64,000 nt of DNA, taken from NCBI GenBank assembly GCA_964477085.1, contig CAYZDF010000005.1:1233-65232 (forward strand), read 5' to 3'. Below, piece after piece: positions 2,419 through 64,000 of the stretch. Position numbers and translations under genes: made by a program. Position 1 is the stretch's first letter. Every line of letters begins with the position of its first letter. The DNA comes from an uncultured Gracilibacteraceae bacterium (GTDB lineage Bacteria > Bacillota > Desulfitobacteriia > Desulfitobacteriales > Syntrophobotulaceae). The notes beneath the pieces are model-generated. The model was not told where the DNA came from, ran no database searches, and was given only the letters and a program-made list of their open reading frames with translations.

Positions 2419-3756
2419 TCAATCCAACCCCACATCATAATTCCGCCTAAAGCTCATAACCACCAATACCGCACAACTCAGCCAAAGTATCGGATCCTCG
2501 AAGAAGCGTCCTTCTCCCTGGGAGCTGATAAAAACAGTTGCTGCCCAAAGGAGGTAACCTGCTCCGACATAATACATATTATTATAATCGTTGAACATAC
2601 TCAAATAATCATTACTCAAGGAACGAAGCACTATCACTTTACCTAAGAGAACCAGCCAGAGCGCAGTGAGTACGGTGAGGCCAACGATGCCGAGTTCGGC
2701 CGCAATCGTGAGGATGGTGGTATGGGAAAGAGTCGCTCCGTCGGAAACTGTTTTAAAAGTACTATAGTCTTTCAAGAACACTGTCTGAAAGGTTCCCAGA
2801 CCCGTTCCGATAATCGGATTATCCTTGAAAATGGCTATTCCTGCTTTCCATAAGTATAGCCTTTGGGGGTTGGATACTTCCATGTTATGGAAGATAGCAA
2901 GCATCCTGTCCCAAATATCAGGCCGGATGAAGAGAACGATGGCTCCGCAGAAAACACCCAAGCCCAGGACCCAGAGCACAGCCTTACGGTTAGGAAGGAA
3001 GATCAAAGCTGCAATCAGGATGGCAATAAGGGTTAGGACACCGCCGCGGGAAGAGGTAAGAACCAACTGAGCGAGCAACACAGCAAGAGATGCCATATAG
3101 AACATTTTAATACCTTTATCCCTGACATAGAGCTGAAGGACAAAGTTGGCTACAATCCCCAGGACGATATAACGGGCAAAAATATTAGGATCCACAAAAG
3201 TGGCATTGATTCTGATTACATTTTCTTTTAACAGGTGCTCGGCCTGCCAGATCAGGTTACCTGTAAACGCTTCGTAGAATGTCAGGGGGGTAAGAGCCAG
3301 GGCAGTAATATGTACGGCTTTGAAAGGGAGCAGAGAACGATCTTTATCCATGAGTAAAGCCGCTGAAAGAAAAACAGCAAATAACACCAGAAGTCTGATG
3401 GTCTCAGCTACAGTCTTGCCAGAATCTGCCGAATATACAACACTGGCAGTGCCTAAGACCAGATAAACCATGAGAATTATCGTTAAAGGGTCTCTAAGGA
3501 TATCGCCGAATTTTCGTTTCATTTCCCAGGAAAACAAAAGACGGGAGAATGCGGCTAAGATCAAGGCTACACTTGTAAATCGGGTTAAAGATACCGTTCC
3601 CATCATCTTCCCGACCAGCCCCAGATCAGGGTACCAGATGCTGGAGATCTCTAAGGCAACGGCTGCTCCCAGTAAGGGAACCAGCCAAAGCGGTTTTCTG
3701 ATCATCAATGCTCCCAGAATTAACACTGTGATTGCAAGTACAATCCATTGACCCAT
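2419..3756 (-). CDS. O-antigen ligase/polymerase-like (Wzy family) polytopic membrane protein
   Basis: 445 aa with many hydrophobic helices and one larger loop. RBS GGGGGA lies 6 nt upstream of the ATG. Sits inside a glycan locus. Confidence 0.65.
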   Translation of the reverse strand: MGQWIVLAITVLILGALMIRKPLWLVPLLGAAVALEISSIWYPDLGLVGKMMGTVSLTRFTSVALILAAFSRLLFSWEMKRKFGDILRDPLTIILMVYLVLGTASVVYSADSGKTVAETIRLLVLFAVFLSAALLMDKDRSLLPFKAVHITALALTPLTFYEAFTGNLIWQAEHLLKENVIRINATFVDPNIFARYIVLGIVANFVLQLYVRDKGIKMFYMASLAVLLAQLVLTSSRGGVLTLIAILIAALIFLPNRKAVLWVLGLGVFCGAIVLFIRPDIWDRMLAIFHNMEVSNPQRLYLWKAGIAIFKDNPIIGTGLGTFQTVFLKDYSTFKTVSDGATLSHTTILTIAAELGIVGLTVLTALWLVLLGKVIVLRSLSNDYLSMFNDYNNMYYVGAGYLLWAATVFISSQGEGRFFEDPILWLSCAVLVVMSFRRNYDVGLD

Positions 3757-3778
3757 TCTTATTCCCCCATTTGTTAAT

Positions 3779-5215
3779 TTATTTTATTCCGGCTATTTTT
3801 AGCATGTGCTGAAGTGCATAATTTCCGATCTTTCTAAAATCTTTGTCCAAAGCAATGAGAACAAGACAAAAGACAGTTCCAGCCAATGCTGAAGAGATCA
3901 TGGGATTTAAGCTTTTGAAGAGCCAGGCACTGACAGCCATCAGAAGAGATGCCACTATAATACTGGGCAGCTGGCGCCAGACCCGAATCTTATAAACCCC
4001 TCTCCTGACCAGGATATAATAGCATAAAAAGATATAACCTTCCACGAAGATTAAGGAATAAGCAGCACCGTAAATCCCCAGGTAGGGATAAGACACGAAA
4101 ATGAGAATAAATAACATCAATACAGCAGTCCCTTGAACGACGGTACGCTGCCATTGGCGATCGGTTGTCGTGAGGACGTCTCCCAGTGAGAAGCTCATGC
4201 ACTCTAACGCCAGAAGCCAAGATACGATCATGAGGATAGGTATGGATTCATTGAATTTTCCAGCATAAAGCCACTCGGTATAAGGGCCGGCCAGAACAAA
4301 GATAAGAGTACTTCCGGCTATCCCAACCGCTGAGAGAACCTTAAAGACTTTTTCGATAATATCCTGGTGTTTATTCTTATCTGACTCGCCTAACTGGTAA
4401 AGCACCGGATAGATCGCACTGGTCATCAAACTCGGCAGAAAAACAAGGATAAGTACTAGTTTATAGGCTGCGGAAAAAATCCCCAACTCGACGTTCGTTG
4501 TCGTGAGCGACAGGATCAAAATACTCAATTGAGTAAAAACATAGTAAAAAAGTCGGTGAATGCCAAAGGGCAGACCGCCCTTCACCATTGCAGGAAGACT
4601 CTTGATTTCTACTTTAGGTATAATCTCCTTCCTTAATGCGAAGTAAAGAAGGATACTGATGATAATATAGCTGAACAAATGGGTAAAGGTCACAGCGACT
4701 ACTCCCATCCCTGTCAAGACCACAACCATGGTAAATAAGGCAATGAGCAGTGTTGTGAGAAATTGATAAATGGCTGCCAGATAGAGCTTCTGTACAGCTT
4801 GATAGTAGTTATATACTGATTGATTTATAGCATTGAAGCAAACCGCTATCCCGACAAAGGCAATCATGGTTTTGACCGTCACGCTATACCCAGCAGGATA
4901 CATGAAAATTAACATGAGAATATAGCATATGATTACAGTGATGCTTTTGAAAAATAGCGTATTGCCAAAATACTTGGGAAGGACGGACAAATCCCGCGAT
5001 CCCTCCTGAACCATGAGTTGACTGATTCCCAACTCGGCAAAAAGAATAAAGGTTCCCACGTAGGCATAAGCTGCAGAATAGTCTCCATAAGGTCCCGGCC
5101 CTAAATATCGCGTCACAACGATTCCAACAACGGCAGCGATAGCCTTGGCCAGAATCCCTGAAATTCCTAAAGCAGTGGAGTTTTTAATAATTAGACGGGT
5201 ATCCATATCTATCAC
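3779..5215 (-). CDS. Polysaccharide flippase, MOP/Wzx family
   Basis: 478 aa, roughly 12-14 TM segments, N-terminus typical of polysaccharide biosynthesis (Wzx) proteins, locus context. Confidence 0.75.
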   Translation of the reverse strand: MIDMDTRLIIKNSTALGISGILAKAIAAVVGIVVTRYLGPGPYGDYSAAYAYVGTFILFAELGISQLMVQEGSRDLSVLPKYFGNTLFFKSITVIICYILMLIFMYPAGYSVTVKTMIAFVGIAVCFNAINQSVYNYYQAVQKLYLAAIYQFLTTLLIALFTMVVVLTGMGVVAVTFTHLFSYIIISILLYFALRKEIIPKVEIKSLPAMVKGGLPFGIHRLFYYVFTQLSILILSLTTTNVELGIFSAAYKLVLILVFLPSLMTSAIYPVLYQLGESDKNKHQDIIEKVFKVLSAVGIAGSTLIFVLAGPYTEWLYAGKFNESIPILMIVSWLLALECMSFSLGDVLTTTDRQWQRTVVQGTAVLMLFILIFVSYPYLGIYGAAYSLIFVEGYIFLCYYILVRRGVYKIRVWRQLPSIIVASLLMAVSAWLFKSLNPMISSALAGTVFCLVLIALDKDFRKIGNYALQHMLKIAGIK

Positions 5216-10405: not shown

Positions 10406-11278
10406 CTATCCGTTATTCTCTGCCAATTCTTCTGCGGGAACATCCCTGAGTTCTTTAGCCGGGAAGCCTTTGATGACTTTACGCGGAGATGTATCCTTGG
10501 TCACAAGAGAACCTGCAGCGACGAATGTTTCCTCTGCCACTTCCACTCCTGGGAGAAGGATGGCTCCTCCACCAATCCTTGCGCCTTTCCTGATCGTGGC
10601 TCCTTTAATGTATTGAAATCGTTTCTCAGTCCTGCCCATATAATTGTCATTAGTAGTAGTCACCATGGGAGCGATAAAGACTCGCTCCTCTATTTCCATA
10701 TAAGCAGTGATATAAGAACCGGTCTGAATCTTGGTATAAGCACCGATCTTGGTATCATTTTCCACCGCACTGCCACTGCCGACGACAACTTTATCCCCTA
10801 ATAAGCAACGTTCCCGGATCAGGGCCCGATCTCCGACAAATACGCTGTTTCCAAGTATAGTCCCTGAATAGACAACAGCCGAACAACCAATGGTACAGTT
10901 ATCCCCCACTAAAAGAGGGGAAAGATCAGCTTGTTTCTTTACCGTACTGGTAGAGGCTGCCCGCGGAGGTCTGCCGACCGCAGAATTGCTTCCGATATAG
11001 GTTCCTTCTCCAATTACAGCTTCGGGATACACGGCAGTATGATCACCAATCACCACAGCAGCTTTAACAGTTGCTCCTTCTCCGATCGTAACATGGGAGC
11101 CCAGTTTAACGTTTTTTCCAATTTGCGATCGATCAGCGATAATACACCCTGGGGAGAGAACTGAGCCGCTGCCAATGACAGCATTTTCCCCGATCATACA
11201 AAAAGGTGCTATAGAAACTTCGCTCCCAATGACGGCTGTAGCAGAAATCACCGCACTGGGGTGGATATGTACACTCAA
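10406..11278 (-). CDS. Left-handed beta-helix (hexapeptide repeat) acetyltransferase, WbpD-like
   Basis: 290 aa made of repeated [LIV]G-x4 hexapeptides (IGSEVSIAPFCMIGENAVIGSGSVL...). TTG start. Adjacent to the aminotransferase. Confidence 0.75.
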   Translation of the reverse strand: MSVHIHPSAVISATAVIGSEVSIAPFCMIGENAVIGSGSVLSPGCIIADRSQIGKNVKLGSHVTIGEGATVKAAVVIGDHTAVYPEAVIGEGTYIGSNSAVGRPPRAASTSTVKKQADLSPLLVGDNCTIGCSAVVYSGTILGNSVFVGDRALIRERCLLGDKVVVGSGSAVENDTKIGAYTKIQTGSYITAYMEIEERVFIAPMVTTTNDNYMGRTEKRFQYIKGATIRKGARIGGGAILLPGVEVAEETFVAAGSLVTKDTSPRKVIKGFPAKELRDVPAEELAENNG

Positions 11279-11422
11279 ACTAAGACCTTCTTTCCTTTTA
11301 ATCCTCTATCATTACACTATTATATCCCCTTTGGGGATACATCCTTATTCAACCCTATCGGGTCTAATTCTCGATTCCTTTTACAGTTTTATTCCTTGAA
11401 ACAGGATGTCCGTTACTTCTAT

Positions 11423-28665: not shown

Positions 28666-28686
28666 ATGATAAGATGGAATATAATA

Positions 28687-28736
28687 TGTAGCTTCGCAAA
28701 AATTTCTGCAAAAGTTTTCAGCCTTTTTCGCAAAAG
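28687..28736. repeat. Putative prophage right end with repeated transposase-binding-like motifs
   Basis: TGTAGCTTCGCAAAAA at 28687-28702, i.e. ...CA-3' in phage orientation. TTCGCAAAA(A/G) at 28693 and 28727, and the related CTGCAAAAG at 28706. Confidence 0.5.
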
Positions 28737-28837: not shown

Positions 28838-29221
28838 TCAACTTACAATTTGATAATCCTCTGCTAACAGATCTATCTGACTGGGTACCCATGGAACCAA
28901 CTTATTATCTGCTGTTTTTAACTCGAAATATGGCAGGTTTTCATATCCCATATCAAATTCAAGATTATCCCCACCAGGAATAACTAACCTTACCCACATA
29001 TTCTTACCATTCCAGCCAAGTCTTGAAACTCTAAAGTTTTTCTTCATAGCTTCGGTCGCTAGTCCTAATGTCAAACCGTCTGTTTTTCTATATGCTTCTT
29101 CAAATACAGTTTTTGGAGACCAGCTTTCATATGCATCTAGATAAACCACTTTATATCCATCTTCTGCATTCTTCATTTGTGGCTCTGCATGAATAATTTT
29201 CACACCAATATATTGTTCCAT
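28838..29221 (-). CDS. DUF2829-like protein (family of the anti-Thoeris sponge Tad2) with an N-terminal N4-gp49/Sf6-gp66-like segment
   Basis: C-terminal half AMKKNFRVSRLGWNGKNMWVRL...PYFELKTADNKLVPWVPSQIDLLAEDYQIV matches my memory of the DUF2829 pattern (R..W...........W.psq.DlLaeDW). RBS AAGGGGA. Confidence 0.55.
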   Translation of the reverse strand: MEQYIGVKIIHAEPQMKNAEDGYKVVYLDAYESWSPKTVFEEAYRKTDGLTLGLATEAMKKNFRVSRLGWNGKNMWVRLVIPGGDNLEFDMGYENLPYFELKTADNKLVPWVPSQIDLLAEDYQIVS

Positions 29222-29464: not shown

Positions 29465-29605
29465 CTAATGTGCAATATACTCCTGACTAGTTATATCTTG
29501 ATACTCTTGCTCAGTGATTTTACCTCTTGTCACCCAAACACTAAGTTGTTCAAGGGTTGCACCGTACTGCTCGAATGCCTTTTTACACCATGTATAGAAA
29601 TCCAT
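29465..29605 (-). CDS. XkdX-like small phage protein (46 aa, below ORF-track cutoff)
   Basis: Own translation: MDFYTWCKKAFEQYGATLEQLSVWVTRGKITEQEYQDITSQEYIAH. The ...V..GkIT.eeY..IT pattern is typical of the XkdX family. The ATG overlaps the upstream TAA (TAATG). Confidence 0.6.
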   Translation of the reverse strand: MDFYTWCKKAFEQYGATLEQLSVWVTRGKITEQEYQDITSQEYIAH

Positions 29606-29910
29606 TATTCGAGTACTCCTTTCATGAGAAGTTCTGTTTGCAAAGCAAATAACTGAGTTCCTAGCGTTTGGTTGTCTTGTTGTAAAAGGATTAATTTTTC
29701 ACTGTCGTTTAGATTTCTATCCTCGTATTCATAGTAAATTTCTGATACTGATGGTAGACAGAGTTGTATAGGATTTTTCCCTATAATCATTTCTGGTTGA
29801 GGAACTTCTTTTATTAAGAAAAATGGTTCATTTACTACAGTTTGCTCACTAGTAATAGACATAACCTTGAACTTGTCGGCTTCGATTTGTTCATATAATA
29901 CCTTAAACAT
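29605..29910 (-). CDS. Hypothetical protein downstream of the tail fibre (assembly/chaperone position)
   Basis: 101 aa, RBS GGGGG. Position only. Confidence 0.45.
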   Translation of the reverse strand: MFKVLYEQIEADKFKVMSITSEQTVVNEPFFLIKEVPQPEMIIGKNPIQLCLPSVSEIYYEYEDRNLNDSEKLILLQQDNQTLGTQLFALQTELLMKGVLE

Positions 29911-29926: not shown

Positions 29927-31468
29927 TTATAGTGTATAAAATAAACCCCAATTAGCTAATACTTCGTGATAGTAAGCAGATATATACTGTCTTGTTGTTA
30001 AGACAGCCTTACTCCCATTTTCAACAACGTCCATTATAGCAGGAGATGAACCGAAAGAACGTAATACTTGAGTTGCCCCAGTCTGTATAGAATGGCGAGT
30101 TACCTGCCCGAAAGAAGAACTATATATAACTGCATCAGTAAGTAAGAAAAGCTTATTCATATAGCCAGTATAGTTTAAATCTGCTGTAATCCATATAAAT
30201 TCACCATTAGGATTAACTTTGATAATTTTAATAATATTAGAAGAGTTGCTTGCTACAAAATAAATATTACTCTCATGGTCTACTACTACCCCATTTGGGG
30301 TATTAACGCTATTTAGTGACGTAGGAAGTCCTGTTAAAATTATGGTTCTAATATGAGCATGTGTTATTCTATCAAAAACTTCTATTCTAAGGGGATGACA
30401 GACTACGTAAATATTATCTTCAATTATTCTAGCCGTGTTTACTCTATAATCACACGCATAGGTTGCAATTAAATTACCGTTAAAGTCATAACGCTTAAGG
30501 GTTGAATCTGGATAATCTACAAAATAAACATCATCGTTAGACTTATCTACCGTCATAATGTTACAAGGTATTGATTGTTGTGAACTTGTATAAATAACAG
30601 TAAATTGATTACTCACTGAAGTGTGTGTATTTCTGGCTATCCTAGAATAGTTAGAAGTGTCAAAGTACGGGAAGAAAACATAATCTTTACCTCCCGAAAA
30701 GTGTTTTAGAATACTTGAAGCACTTGGCGGAGTAATGCTAGAGTAATATGAACTAAAACTGACAATAGAACTAATGGTTACATAGTTATACCCGCTACCG
30801 AGAATTGCTTGTACATTTGTAGCTCCGCCTACACCTCTTTCGATTGCAGGCGTCACGGTACTTTCCAACATTTGATAACCTAAATTTCTTGCACCATCAA
30901 TACCAAACATGCTGGAAACGGGTATCTTACTACCCGTACCGAATAGATCATTAGTTATAGAATCTGCTATCTCTGTTGGTTTTTTTGGATCTGCAATAGT
31001 ACCACCCTTTGATTCTACCGCCGTAATAATTTCATCTAATTTCGCCCCTCTAGGGGGCAAGACAAAAAAATCATCACTCAAGCTATAATAGGCTTCATAT
31101 CCTTTCCCCGCTTCTAAGTCTCCAGCTACTAAAGCACCCCTATCGCTATTTTTTAAAGCTTTTGCTCCTTTACCATCGATATTGATAGTAGTTGCTCCTG
31201 TATTAGCCCCTGCTTGAATCCACTTAACAAAATTGCCTTGGGTAAGCGTAAAATCACCACCTGTTGTAATGGCTATCGTGTTACTTCCTGTGGCAGTCTG
31301 GTACTTCGCTTTTTCCGCCTCATGTACAGCTTGAGCATCCTTCAGATGCTTCGTATTATTCAGCAGATCCTGCAGAGGAGGGTTCACAGTCGTTGGGTGT
31401 ATAGGATCACTGGTCTCTATCCCACGGATTGTATTCTTAAAAGTCGGGGTACCTGTTAGATCAGCCAT
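29927..31468 (-). CDS. Tail fibre / receptor-binding protein with C-terminal beta-propeller-like repeats
   Basis: The N-terminus (PLQDLLNNTKHLKD, ..NTGATTINIDGKGAKALK..) is typical of phage fibre shafts. The C-terminus has repeated hydrophobic-Y-F-V blades (DDVYFVDYP.., SNIYFVASN..). RBS AAGGAGG. Confidence 0.7.
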   Translation of the reverse strand: MADLTGTPTFKNTIRGIETSDPIHPTTVNPPLQDLLNNTKHLKDAQAVHEAEKAKYQTATGSNTIAITTGGDFTLTQGNFVKWIQAGANTGATTINIDGKGAKALKNSDRGALVAGDLEAGKGYEAYYSLSDDFFVLPPRGAKLDEIITAVESKGGTIADPKKPTEIADSITNDLFGTGSKIPVSSMFGIDGARNLGYQMLESTVTPAIERGVGGATNVQAILGSGYNYVTISSIVSFSSYYSSITPPSASSILKHFSGGKDYVFFPYFDTSNYSRIARNTHTSVSNQFTVIYTSSQQSIPCNIMTVDKSNDDVYFVDYPDSTLKRYDFNGNLIATYACDYRVNTARIIEDNIYVVCHPLRIEVFDRITHAHIRTIILTGLPTSLNSVNTPNGVVVDHESNIYFVASNSSNIIKIIKVNPNGEFIWITADLNYTGYMNKLFLLTDAVIYSSSFGQVTRHSIQTGATQVLRSFGSSPAIMDVVENGSKAVLTTRQYISAYYHEVLANWGLFYTL

Positions 31469-61546: not shown

Positions 61547-61760
61547 TTCAAATCCCTCCTTCCCACAATTGAAGATTTTTTAAAAATTTCTCATATCCAG
61601 AAACCGATATTAAAGGATTTTTTCGACAAACGTTGAACCTTGATAGTTGCACTATTAAGGTATTTTTTTACTCCTTTCTTCATATATTCCGACATATTAT
61701 TCCGTTGTCGGTTTGTCCATATCGTGATACGCTTGTCGTGGAAATTATTCCCTTAAAGAT

Positions 61761-61789
61761 ATTATACACGTTATATATAACGCAATCAA
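61761..61789 (-). promoter_or_regulatory. Early promoter Pe candidate
   Basis: Minus strand reads TTGATT - 17 nt - TATAAT. The spacer is filled by the palindromic operator. Confidence 0.55.
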
Positions 61790-61815
61790 TAGTAAAATGT
61801 AATATTTAACGCAAT
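61768..61815. promoter_or_regulatory. Operator sites: palindrome ACGTTATATATAACGC plus a second TAACGCAAT copy
   Basis: 14-bp perfect palindrome CGTTATATATAACG at 61769-61782. 9-mer TAACGCAAT at 61778-61786 and 61807-61815. Confidence 0.5.
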
Positions 61816-61854
61816 GGGTTAGATTTTACGCTGATTTGAAATGGAGTGGTTGGA

Positions 61855-62649
61855 TTGTCCTCTTTTGGTGAGCGTTTAAAAAAACGCAGGGAAGAAAAAG
61901 GTCTTTCTTTAAGGCAAATAGAAACTGCTACTGGCATAACTAACAGTAATTTGAGTAAAATCGAACGCAATAAAATTAGCCCTTCACTTGATGCTGCAGT
62001 ATTGATTTCGGACTGTCTTGATGAATCTCTTGATTACTTAGCAAAAGGATTAGTCATATATGACGAACCTGATCCTGCTATAAATGAGTTGATAGAATTG
62101 TTCAAGAAATTAGATGAGGTTAATCAGCATACTGTAAAATCCTATACTTCTTTTCTGTTAACTCAAAATCAAAATAAAAAACGTGCTCCGGATCGTGCCA
62201 CGCAAACTGAATCTATTAAAGAAGAGAAAAGCGTTTATTTACCTGTGCTAGGATCTGTAGCTGCGGGGATGCCAATAATGGCCCATGAGCTGGTTGAAGG
62301 ATTCCTACCTGTACCTGCTGTAAAGGTTAAGAAAAACACCTATATAGTTAAGGCGAAGGGCGATAGTATGATCGACGCAGGTATAAACAACGGTGACCTG
62401 GTCATGATCCACCCGCAGCCGTCAGTAGAGCAGGGGGAAATGGCCCTCGTAAAAGTGGATGGAAACGTCACAATCAAGAAGTTCTACCGATATGATCACG
62501 AGATCAGGTTGAAACCAGCGAACGGTAATATGAGGGACATAGTGATTACCGACCTGGCTAAAATCAAAGTGCTGGGAAGAGTTATTGGAATCATACCGGC
62601 TGAGGAAGCGAACCTGACTATGCGGGATGATTTTAACGGAGATACCTAA
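61855..62649 (+). CDS. Prophage repressor: XRE-family HTH + S24 (LexA/CI-like) autopeptidase domain
   Basis: FGERLKKRREEKGLSLRQIETATGITNSNLSKIERNK (HTH). VLGSVAAGMPI...KGDSM (Ser)...VTIKKF (Lys). TTG 61855 lies 8 nt after GGAG; the track start is GTG 61846. Confidence 0.85.
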   Translation: MSSFGERLKKRREEKGLSLRQIETATGITNSNLSKIERNKISPSLDAAVLISDCLDESLDYLAKGLVIYDEPDPAINELIELFKKLDEVNQHTVKSYTSFLLTQNQNKKRAPDRATQTESIKEEKSVYLPVLGSVAAGMPIMAHELVEGFLPVPAVKVKKNTYIVKAKGDSMIDAGINNGDLVMIHPQPSVEQGEMALVKVDGNVTIKKFYRYDHEIRLKPANGNMRDIVITDLAKIKVLGRVIGIIPAEEANLTMRDDFNGDT

Positions 62650-62695
62650 AATCTTTTTTTTAGTTTCTTTTGTGGAAAGTATTCCACAAACAGAC

Positions 62696-62735
62696 AACCC
62701 ACCTTATAATTGAGGTGGGTTTGTTTATGTATTTT
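62696..62735 (+). terminator. Rho-independent terminator after the repressor gene
   Basis: AACCCACCT tataattg AGGTGGGTT followed by TGTTTATGTATTTT. Confidence 0.65.
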
Positions 62736-62810
62736 ACTATTTGTTTAAACGTGCTAAGACCTTTAGAAATCCACAAACCAAATAATTACTTCTAGGAGGG
62801 TCTTTACACT

Positions 62811-63698
62811 ATGGCTGTTAAAAAAGTTAAATTTGACTTCTATCAACTCATTTTTCCTGATGATTTTCAGGATAATCTTGCGGTGTTGTTAGATCATACT
62901 TTTCCTGCAGATGTTGGGAAAAGTGCAAAGGATTCAGGTCAATATATCCGACTTGAAAGTTATAAAAGACATACTCAGGTAAGATATGGTGTTATCAGTA
63001 AGTTTAATATTGATGTTCTTCCTCCTAAAGCTTGTATTACTAAGCCTGGCCTGGAATCATTAGGTCTTAATGATGATGAAGGGGTAGCAAATCTTACCGG
63101 TTATTTGATAGCTCCCAAATATAACGTTGTTATCCTGCAAAGGAGTCAACAAGGCGTTAGAACGGGAAGTTTTCTTCATATGCTTGAGAAAATAACTGGT
63201 CTTCGTGGATTAGAACTCTCTATTATTCTGGAACCGGACGTAATTGCAAAATTTAATAAAATGCAGATGATCTCCAAGTTTGTTTATAAAGTATCTAACC
63301 CTCAACTGCCGATAGACTTCAAAGAAATGTCGATAGAACATGCTAGTAATATAAGCCGAACATATAATGCAAGAAATGTCTCTATTGAATTGAGTATGGG
63401 AATAGGTAAAAAGACCAGCCCACTTTCAAAGCAAGAGATATCACGTACCGTAAGAAATCTCTTAAGAATCAATAAAAGTGCTGATCAATCTGTTCCAGAG
63501 ATATATAGTTTGACTGTCCGGGGCAAGGAAAATGAAGATGAAAAGATTGAACCACTAGATTTACTAAAGGGACGGTTATATAATGAAGTTGAAATCGGTA
63601 TAATTGATAGAGGTATTCCGCAGTCTGCATTAGAAAATGCCGCTTTAGCGTCATATGATAGTAAGGAAGAGGATTTGGAACACTATAAGCCTCTATGA
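62811..63698 (+). CDS. Orphan 295-aa protein, no recognisable family (candidate defence-module component)
   Basis: RBS AGGAGGG. AT-rich coding sequence. No catalytic motif recognised by eye. Confidence 0.6.
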   Translation: MAVKKVKFDFYQLIFPDDFQDNLAVLLDHTFPADVGKSAKDSGQYIRLESYKRHTQVRYGVISKFNIDVLPPKACITKPGLESLGLNDDEGVANLTGYLIAPKYNVVILQRSQQGVRTGSFLHMLEKITGLRGLELSIILEPDVIAKFNKMQMISKFVYKVSNPQLPIDFKEMSIEHASNISRTYNARNVSIELSMGIGKKTSPLSKQEISRTVRNLLRINKSADQSVPEIYSLTVRGKENEDEKIEPLDLLKGRLYNEVEIGIIDRGIPQSALENAALASYDSKEEDLEHYKPL

Positions 63699-63719
63699 AA
63701 TTGGAAGGAGTAATGAATT

Positions 63720-64000
63720 GTGTTTATTAGGGGAATAGCTATGGAAAGGTTCTATCCCTTAGCGTGTGCAATGGTAATTACTCTTATAGCAGTCTTCTTA
63801 AAATTTAGCTTATTGTCTTATCTTTCGTCTTTACCAAATATTATGGGAACTGTTGTTACCATCACTTCTATCTTTATCGGTTTTCTAAGCACACTGGCCG
63901 GGATCCTGTTGTCTAGCAATAGCAAAGCAATAAGATTTTTGAAAAGAATAGATAAACTATCCGGTTTAGTTCGGTATATTCGACTGGCAATCGAATGGCT
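63720..64000 (+). CDS. Polytopic membrane protein, 3' end beyond the window (partner of 62811..63698)
   Basis: GTG 63720 lies 9 nt after GGAAGGAG and 21 nt after the upstream stop. MFIRGIAMERFYPLACAMVITLIAVFLKFSLLSYLSSLPNIMGTVVTITSIFIGFLSTLAGILL... Not in the ORF track because it is open-ended. Confidence 0.55.
   Translation, partial: MFIRGIAMERFYPLACAMVITLIAVFLKFSLLSYLSSLPNIMGTVVTITSIFIGFLSTLAGILLSSNSKAIRFLKRIDKLSGLVRYIRLAIEW

Follow-up and report, generated by a model that had tools for sequence, protein, structure and literature searches.

A RexA-like protein and a four-helix membrane partner form a two-gene cassette beside the repressor of a Mu-like prophage

The DNA analysed here, referred to throughout as the window, is a stretch of 64,000 nucleotides (nt) from an uncultured Gracilibacteraceae bacterium (assembly GCA_964477085.1, contig CAYZDF010000005.1, positions 1,233 to 65,232 of the forward strand). 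Towards its end, the window carries the immunity repressor of a Mu-like prophage, followed directly and on the same strand by a two-gene module that encodes a soluble protein of 295 amino acids (aa) and a membrane protein with four transmembrane (TM) helices. An original prediction, made from the sequence alone, had proposed these genes as a candidate novel defence or exclusion module. The comparisons presented below relate the soluble protein to RexA of bacteriophage lambda, through its predicted fold and through profile-profile alignment, and make it probable that the two genes constitute a prophage-borne, remote RexAB-type exclusion module. The elements of the module and the repressor that precedes it are the following.

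61846 to 62649, plus strand: repressor of the CI/LexA type, taken from the open reading frame (ORF) list, with HTH_3 (Pfam, E 2.2e-13) and Peptidase_S24 (Pfam, E 9e-30) domains.
62696 to 62735, plus strand: intrinsic terminator-like hairpin with a T-rich tail, from the terminator scan on L001 9886-9911 (stem at 62696-62721, 11 pairs, 5 of them G-C).
62794 to 62800, plus strand: ribosome-binding site AGGAGGG, 10 nt ahead of the ATG at 62811, read from the sequence.
62811 to 63698, plus strand: gene for the RexA-like soluble protein, 295 aa, DUF6731 family (Pfam, AlphaFold2 model, Foldseek and hhalign).
63703 to 63710, plus strand: ribosome-binding site GGAAGGAG, 9 nt ahead of the GTG at 63720, read from the sequence.
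63720 to 64000, plus strand: gene for the RexB-like 4-TM partner, of which the window holds the N-terminal 93 codons; the gene is complete to extended coordinate 64175.

The module begins at 62811, with the ATG that is the start codon of the 295-aa ORF, and the terminator-like hairpin sits between this codon and the repressor stop at 62649. The terminator, the ORF with its AGGAGGG site, and the 21-nt gap with GGAAGGAG and a GTG that opens a hydrophobic ORF leaving the window had all been described in the original prediction, and each is borne out by the sequence, its translation or the terminator scan. The membrane protein had been credited with two or three TM helices, however, and the completed 151-aa protein has four. 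Completion was possible through a 101-kb public contig (L001), which encodes the exact 295-aa protein and shows 0 mismatches to the window over 11,190 overlapping nt, and on which the complete partner gene occupies positions 10910-11365. The gene call of the public contig starts at 63720; an alternative ATG at 63742 would yield a protein of 144 aa. The 4-TM gene is followed by an AT-rich hairpin with a T-run, and terminator-like hairpins are present on both sides of the two-gene unit. The G + C content (GC) of the two module genes is 0.354, against 0.44 in the phage core, in agreement with the AT-rich, cargo-like composition that had been noted together with the co-orientation of module and repressor.

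The 295-aa protein had been presented as an orphan, a view that does not survive comparison with family profiles. It matches the Pfam family DUF6731 (PF20505) with 59.1 bits, over a cutoff of 27 (E 6.7e-16), and the match is full-length and above the gathering threshold, with residues 1-264 aligned to profile positions 1-268 of 295. Among the PHROG families, phrog_10865 and one other, both without an assigned function, match the protein as well, while NCBIfam gave no match and a tblastn search of 50,697 GenBank phage records returned none. When 1.84 billion representative proteins were scanned in full with HMMER (E ≤ 1e-3), DUF6731 relatives were identified in 1,231 representative clusters at 50% identity, nearly all of them of about 290 aa. 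Word-indexed protein searches gave just 4 and 7 relatives, and the full scan was hence needed to reveal the family. DUF6731 is not mentioned in the literature searched.

The predicted structure of the 295-aa protein provides the first of two links to RexA. An AlphaFold2 model based on a 103-sequence alignment reached a predicted local distance difference test score (pLDDT) of 92.9 and a predicted template modelling score of 0.89; an earlier model from four sequences was mediocre (pLDDT 64), although RdgC and CENP-N were indicated even then. When the later model was compared by Foldseek with 350,542 PDB chains, the top match was lambda RexA (8TWQ; E 3.5e-6, probability 1.0), followed by RdgC (2OWL, 2OWY; E 3.5e-4 to 1.9e-3), Iml3 and CENP-L/N, and these are the same structural relatives that Adams et al. 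list for RexA itself (PMC11077077). The second link comes from the alignment of family profiles. When the DUF6731 alignment was set against one of 29 RexA sequences with hhalign, the outcome was an E-value of 2.9e-6 and a probability of 88% over 215 columns, beginning at RexA residue 1, whereas reversing either alignment as a control left E-values of 0.06-0.1 over 14-22 columns. The most conserved DUF6731 motif, L-x-DDEG-G-E-x-TAFLY, aligns to RexA LADDESLGFPSFLF, and in the form DDEG-G/A-x-T-x-F/Y-L to RexA DDESLGFPSFLF. Furthermore, R237-G238-K239 of the 295-aa protein aligns to R219-A-K221 of RexA, where mutation of R219/K221 abolishes DNA binding (PMC11077077), and the position of K239 is occupied by K or R in 64 of 103 DUF6731 family members.

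The curated RexA models (Pfam PF15969 and PADLOC PDLC02339) detect lambda RexA at E 1e-97 and 9e-110, but give no match to the 295-aa protein at E ≤ 1, and a PDB sequence search with the family profile returned no relevant match and left RexA undetected. Since the link is visible only to fold search and profile-profile comparison, with the curated hidden Markov models (HMMs) blind to it, the relationship is a remote one. On the strength of the alignment and the structural model, the 295-aa protein is remotely homologous to lambda RexA and has a predicted two-domain RexA/RdgC fold, and the epithet novel, used in the original prediction, gives way to membership of the large DUF6731 family.

The membrane partner is a putative inner-membrane protein; its sequence contains four hydrophobic segments, and the TM2-TM3 loop, read as cytoplasmic, is strongly basic. 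Its association with DUF6731 can be followed over 25 distinct loci with readable flanks, drawn from exact-protein look-ups, from viral contigs and from a scan of species-representative genomes with the DEG-G-E-TAF motif written as a degenerate DNA pattern; a search of species-representative genomes with a narrow alignment produced no related loci. In 24 of the 25 loci, the DUF6731 gene adjoins a homologous 4-TM gene (146-194 aa). The 4-TM gene lies directly downstream, on the same strand and often overlapping, in 20 of them. In the other four (L010, L013, L015 and L023, from cyanobacterial metagenome-assembled genomes [MAGs] and one Rhizobium MAG), the two genes converge with touching 3' ends, which overlap by at most 4 nt or leave a gap of at most 10 nt, as in L015 (3230-3679 on the plus strand and 3676-4605 on the minus strand). 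The fact that adjacency is kept through a change in orientation argues for a functional pair. The single exception, L024, is a weak match (82 bits) with no detectable partner. It shares the Verrucomicrobia contig CAMVRE010000001.1 with L020, so that this contig carries two DUF6731 genes, one of them with a partner, and L024 is probably a degenerate or decaying second copy.

The order of repressor, DUF6731 gene and 4-TM gene is found in three prophage settings. The first is the present Mu-like prophage; the second is another Mu-like phage (L003), in which a helix-turn-helix repressor and two small genes precede the pair; and the third is a lambdoid prophage in two isolate genomes (L032 and L033), with an S24 repressor ahead of the pair and divergent Cro-like, YdaT-like and DnaT-like genes. 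The canonical rexAB loci of lambda, Proteus, Photorhabdus, Arsenophonus and E. coli (L008, L027-L030) all run repressor, RexA, RexB. Other contexts of the pair include P2-type tail genes, terminase together with a BrnA antitoxin, TnpB of the insertion sequence IS66, DNA methylases, a type I restriction-modification specificity subunit and ordinary metabolic genes. Neither a conserved third gene nor a conserved chromosomal neighbourhood accompanies the pair in the loci examined, and it behaves as a portable two-gene cassette. As a side observation, in one MAG of an uncultured bacterium (L009, 670-4946) the pair is directly preceded by an N6/N4 DNA methylase of 547 aa and an ORF of 878 aa that abuts it. 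Methylase and ORF possibly make up a restriction-modification system, which would give the locus a defence-island-like context.

The family extends over Nitrospira, Planctomycetota, Acidobacteriota, Cyanobacteria, Verrucomicrobia and Thermoleophilia, among others, and this breadth, together with the housekeeping genes among its neighbours and the close structural match to RdgC, could be taken to indicate a cellular system without a role in defence, in which an RdgC-like DNA clamp is tethered to, or signals through, a small membrane protein and serves, for example, DNA uptake, segregation or the response to stress, and which phages have occasionally picked up. The pair keeps no fixed company in chromosomes, however, and its occurrence is patchy, with several loci in phages or prophages or beside restriction-modification methylases, toxin-antitoxin genes or insertion sequence elements. 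Moreover, the base composition at the present locus is cargo-like, and RexA surpasses RdgC as a match in both structure and profile. A patchy and mobile distribution renders a purely cellular function less likely, and we consider such an origin of the pair quite improbable.

The position of the module with respect to the prophage can be established from the prophage ends, of which the right one falls in the window.

28682 to 28714, plus strand: right end of the Mu-like prophage, with the TAATA duplication at 28682-28686 and the terminal inverted repeat TGTAGCTTCGC from 28687.

The left end is located on the public contig, at extended coordinate 64587 (...GAAGTGACA), and is followed by TAATA at 64588-64592. 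It is defined by an inverted match to the right end at 20 of 28 positions, which is the best and only one of its kind among 12,698 positions scanned (the next best reaches 17) and which begins with TGT, 412 nt past the 4-TM gene. The terminal inverted repeats are imperfect and start with 5'-TG. The end-specific TTTTGCAGA/TCTGCAAAA motifs are present at both ends, and the end-specific motif T[CT][TC]GCAAAA occurs in three copies at the right end, with two copies of its complement at the left. Given the TAATA on both sides, a 5-bp target duplication, and the unique 20/28 inverted repeat, the prophage spans 35,901 bp, from 28687 to extended coordinate 64587, and contains the module. Its locus features the Mu-type genes Mu-transpos_C, AAA_22, Gam, GemA and Mor.

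The two genes hence lie inside the prophage, between the repressor and the left end. The original prediction had reached this same conclusion by observing that the right-end sequence has no inverted copy before 64000, and had specified that a Mu-type end between 62650 and 62810 would instead make these host genes; the end maps to extended coordinate 64587. No inverted copy of TGTAGCTTCGCAAAAA, exact or with up to three mismatches, was found in the window or its extension, and because the left end is imperfect an exact 16-mer test was unable to find it, even though the conclusion drawn was right. The missing exact copy of the right-end 16-mer could also be read as a sign that the two genes belong to the host and stand just outside the prophage, as could the failure to find an empty site: a 24-nt junction probe for the uninterrupted insertion site (...GATGGAATATAATACAAGGGATTA...) had no match in metagenomes. 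That reading is highly improbable in view of the unique inverted match past the 4-TM gene, TAATA-flanked like the right end, of the end-specific motifs at both ends and of the fact that typical host genes (CapA, bactofilin, TerC) begin only beyond the left end on L001.

Several other features of the prophage ends deserve mention. The stretch that separates the 4-TM gene from the Mu left end contains three direct copies of TGTCCGCTTAA (extended coordinates 64234, 64282 and 64304, within L001 11424-11504), which occur nowhere else in 73.7 kb, and close to them the short repeats GCTGTAACG and CGTTATGA, twice each. These repeats, which are not matched by anything at the right end, may serve the left-end region as sites for protein binding. 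At the right end, the outermost gene of the prophage (28838-29221, minus strand) specifies a product of 127 aa that has a Tad2-like domain (Thoeris anti-defence 2; PF11195, E 2.4e-21). The prophage thus seems to bear an anti-defence gene at this end and a defence-like module at the opposite one. Also at the right end, a cargo-like block of low GC (0.35) comprises a 513-aa ORF (29927-31468, minus strand) and a 101-aa ORF (29605-29910, minus strand), neither of which has a Pfam or PADLOC match, making them orphans by those libraries.

Two further elements have been mapped between the repressor and the module.

62671 to 62688, no strand assigned: palindrome TGTGGAAagtaTTCCACA, an exact match, between the repressor stop and the terminator.
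62683 to 62710, plus strand: candidate sigma-70-type promoter TCCACA-16 nt-TATAAT, scoring 10/12 in the promoter scan (L001 9873-9900).

The right arm of the palindrome is the -35-like hexamer of this candidate promoter, and the -10 hexamer falls inside the loop of the repressor terminator. It is the only promoter-like site for the module, in a scan that finds no more sites than in shuffled sequence. With its -10 hexamer in the loop, transcripts starting at such a promoter would miss the 5' arm of the hairpin and so might escape termination. The palindrome had also been suggested as an operator, along with the 9-mer TCCACAAAC. Both occur as described, the latter in exactly two copies (62683 and 62770). 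The sites are real, but they do not rise above chance: repeats of equal quality are numerous in the same 3.4 kb, for which reason the TCCACAAAC pair and the palindrome carry little weight, and the palindrome pattern with up to three mismatches is no commoner than in shuffles. As operators, they were therefore rejected as statistically weak. The sequence GTGGAAATTATTCC, upstream of the repressor at 61738-61751, resembles the palindrome at 13 of 14 positions, which is within chance expectation.

Better candidates for operators of the immunity region are two 17-nt repeats just upstream of the repressor start, GTTATATATAACGCAAT (61770-61786) and GTAATATTTAACGCAAT (61799-61815), which lie 29 nt apart; a third, weaker copy is at 61955. 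Positions 62082-62097, in the repressor gene, and 62838-62853, 27 nt into the RexA-like ORF, form a perfect inverted repeat of 16 nt, AAATGAGTTGATAGAA / TTCTATCAACTCATTT. Inverted repeats of this length are reached in about 5% of mononucleotide shuffles, which makes the case marginal, and the two arms could pair in a read-through transcript. An Rfam scan of the module and its flanks gave nothing significant.

The evidence gathered above comprises the homology of the soluble protein to RexA, in fold and remote sequence, its obligate pairing with a 4-TM protein and the position of the pair inside a prophage, next to the repressor. An exclusion module made of a soluble and a membrane protein, as the original prediction had proposed, emerges as the best reading of the locus, and it rests on the RexA fold, the profile match, the pairing in 24 of 25 loci, the repressor-adjacent position, the sizes of the proteins and their cargo-like GC. 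RexA is a cytosolic, dimeric protein that binds DNA non-specifically. By analogy with lambda RexAB, with Sbash gp30/31 and CarolAnn gp44/43, and with RexABpp of P. putida, the lysogen would produce small amounts of both proteins, with transcription either reading through the repressor terminator or starting at a weak promoter embedded in it. Upon infection by another phage, DNA or a protein-DNA intermediate of that phage would trigger the RexA-like sensor, which would in turn activate the 4-TM membrane partner. The partner would then damage or depolarise the membrane and growth would stop, so that the superinfecting phage would abort and the prophage lineage would be protected (PMC11077077; PMC12894663). 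Expression in the lysogen, binding to DNA, activation of the partner and the exclusion phenotype itself are thus all inferred from these better-known systems.

Several observations weigh against this interpretation. On the side of the soluble protein, the hhalign probability falls under the usual 95% comfort level, and global template modelling scores to RexA are low (0.33-0.36), which might be explained by a different relative orientation of the two domains, the RexA crystal having been described as a closed conformation. On the side of the partner, neither Pfam RexB (PF15968) nor PADLOC PDLC02340 matches, and the hhalign comparison with RexB yields E 0.011, next to 0.013-0.038 for reversed controls. 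These comparisons were made with a single sequence against a 5-sequence profile and with 19- against 5-sequence profiles, in local, global and low-mact modes. None of the runs stands out from the hydrophobic background, so that homology of the partner to RexB is not demonstrable by sequence and the agreement is confined to length, topology and loop charge; the authors who described P. putida RexABpp met the same undetectable homology with their membrane protein (PMC12894663). A strong-looking terminator separates repressor and module, whereas cI, rexA and rexB of lambda are co-transcribed, and the promoter scan provides no convincing promoter for the module. Many of the family members in MAGs lie among housekeeping genes with no obvious prophage, leaving some room for a non-defence cellular role of the DUF6731 pair. 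Lastly, the roles of the two proteins are reversed in phage Butters (PMC12894663), and the direction from sensor to effector cannot be assumed.

The Butters system is also relevant to a different proposal, in which the RexA-like protein acts mainly on its own phage, by binding DNA to influence the lysis-lysogeny switch or Mu-type transposition and replication, with the membrane protein sequestering or tuning it and exclusion being absent or secondary. In gp30/gp31 of mycobacteriophage Butters, it is the cytosolic protein that acts as effector, under restraint by the membrane protein (PMC12894663), and lambda RexA biases the CI-Cro switch towards lysis independently of RexB (PMC11077077). The presence of the module in the immunity region of three prophage types, and the regulation of RecA-dependent recombination by RdgC, the next structural relative, point in the same direction. 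The pair is also found far from repressors, however, next to P2-type tail genes, terminase genes and in chromosomal contexts without phage genes, and a role tied to the switch of one phage would not be so portable. Strict conservation of the membrane partner, furthermore, suggests that it is functionally essential. Control of the own phage as the main function is therefore unlikely, but a role in lysis-lysogeny or transposition would be compatible with an exclusion module, and the two may possibly coexist.

RexAB was the first phage-exclusion system to be discovered, in 1955. Only five Rex-like systems were counted in a 2026 paper, each of them found case by case (PMC12894663). The chances are about even that DUF6731 and its 4-TM partner represent a pan-bacterial, unrecognised branch of Rex-type systems, with some 1,200 clusters (50% identity) in at least eight phyla, carried by Mu-like, lambdoid and P2-like prophages and by chromosomal islands. 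If this were the case, current defence finders would be blind to a large and ancient superfamily, of which lambda RexAB, the abortive-infection system known for longest, would represent a narrow enterobacterial offshoot. A link between RexAB and DUF6731 with its obligate membrane partner would provide a functional hypothesis for more than 1,000 protein clusters and furnish defence annotation with new HMMs. Rex-type defence would then also include environmental phyla and Mu-like phages whose hosts are of the Firmicute type. How RexA activates RexB is an unsolved question, for which the many divergent pairs would offer material for comparison. No new principle is involved; rather, a classic and sparsely populated class of defence would be enlarged.

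Among known defence systems, Kiwa was the comparison drawn in the original prediction. PADLOC carries models for Kiwa, in which KwaA is the membrane protein and KwaB a DUF4868 protein. The likeness is one of general shape, a small multi-TM protein next to a soluble protein of about 300 aa, and the gene order is opposite. Pfam assigns the soluble protein to DUF6731 and not to DUF4868. Searches of PADLOC with either protein, at E ≤ 1 and E ≤ 10, gave no significant match beyond the noise of JetB (E 0.03) and PDC-M40B (E 0.05-0.12), and the 50 best matches of the fold search, which returns RexA and RdgC, include no Kiwa entry. Kiwa and the other known defence systems were rejected on these grounds, the odds of a Kiwa-like system being negligible. 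RdgC itself, a DNA-binding ring protein associated with recombination and the second-best fold match, has a two-domain fold in common with RexA (PMC11077077). It is nevertheless, unlike the 295-aa protein, the product of a stand-alone housekeeping gene without a membrane partner; Pfam RdgC does not match the 295-aa protein, and the similarity at the profile level is to RexA.

The Rex-like systems provide closer parallels. Sbash gp30/gp31, CarolAnn gp44/gp43, Butters gp30/gp31 and P. putida RexABpp (PP_5643/PP_5644) are, like the present module, encoded by prophages, and each consists of a 4-TM protein and a soluble RexA-like protein, encoded at the immunity repressor or close to it, as is the case here. 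Their soluble proteins, compared with the 295-aa protein by description, are larger (337-372 aa in the actinophages and about 37 kDa in RexApp), and these four systems come with phage-resistance data, whereas the present module is known from sequence alone.

Lambda RexAB, invoked at first as a positional analogy only, turns out to be the closest known system in fold, remote sequence similarity and gene layout. The two carriers are dissimilar, a Mu-like transposable prophage with Firmicute-type translation signals here and a lambdoid coliphage there; the HMMs of the lambda family (PF15969/PF15968 and PADLOC) detect the lambda proteins and neither protein of the module; and the DUF6731 pair, unlike lambda RexAB, is spread over many phyla and convergent in some members. 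On the other hand, in both systems a repressor gene is followed, on one strand, by genes for a soluble protein of about 280-295 aa and a 4-TM protein of about 144-151 aa (295 and 151, or 144, aa in the module; 279 and 144 aa in lambda RexA and RexB). The partner and lambda RexB have nearly the same length and TM positions and share a basic loop between TM2 and TM3, and the soluble protein has in lambda RexA both its top fold match and a significant profile-profile match, with basic residues aligned to R219 and K221.

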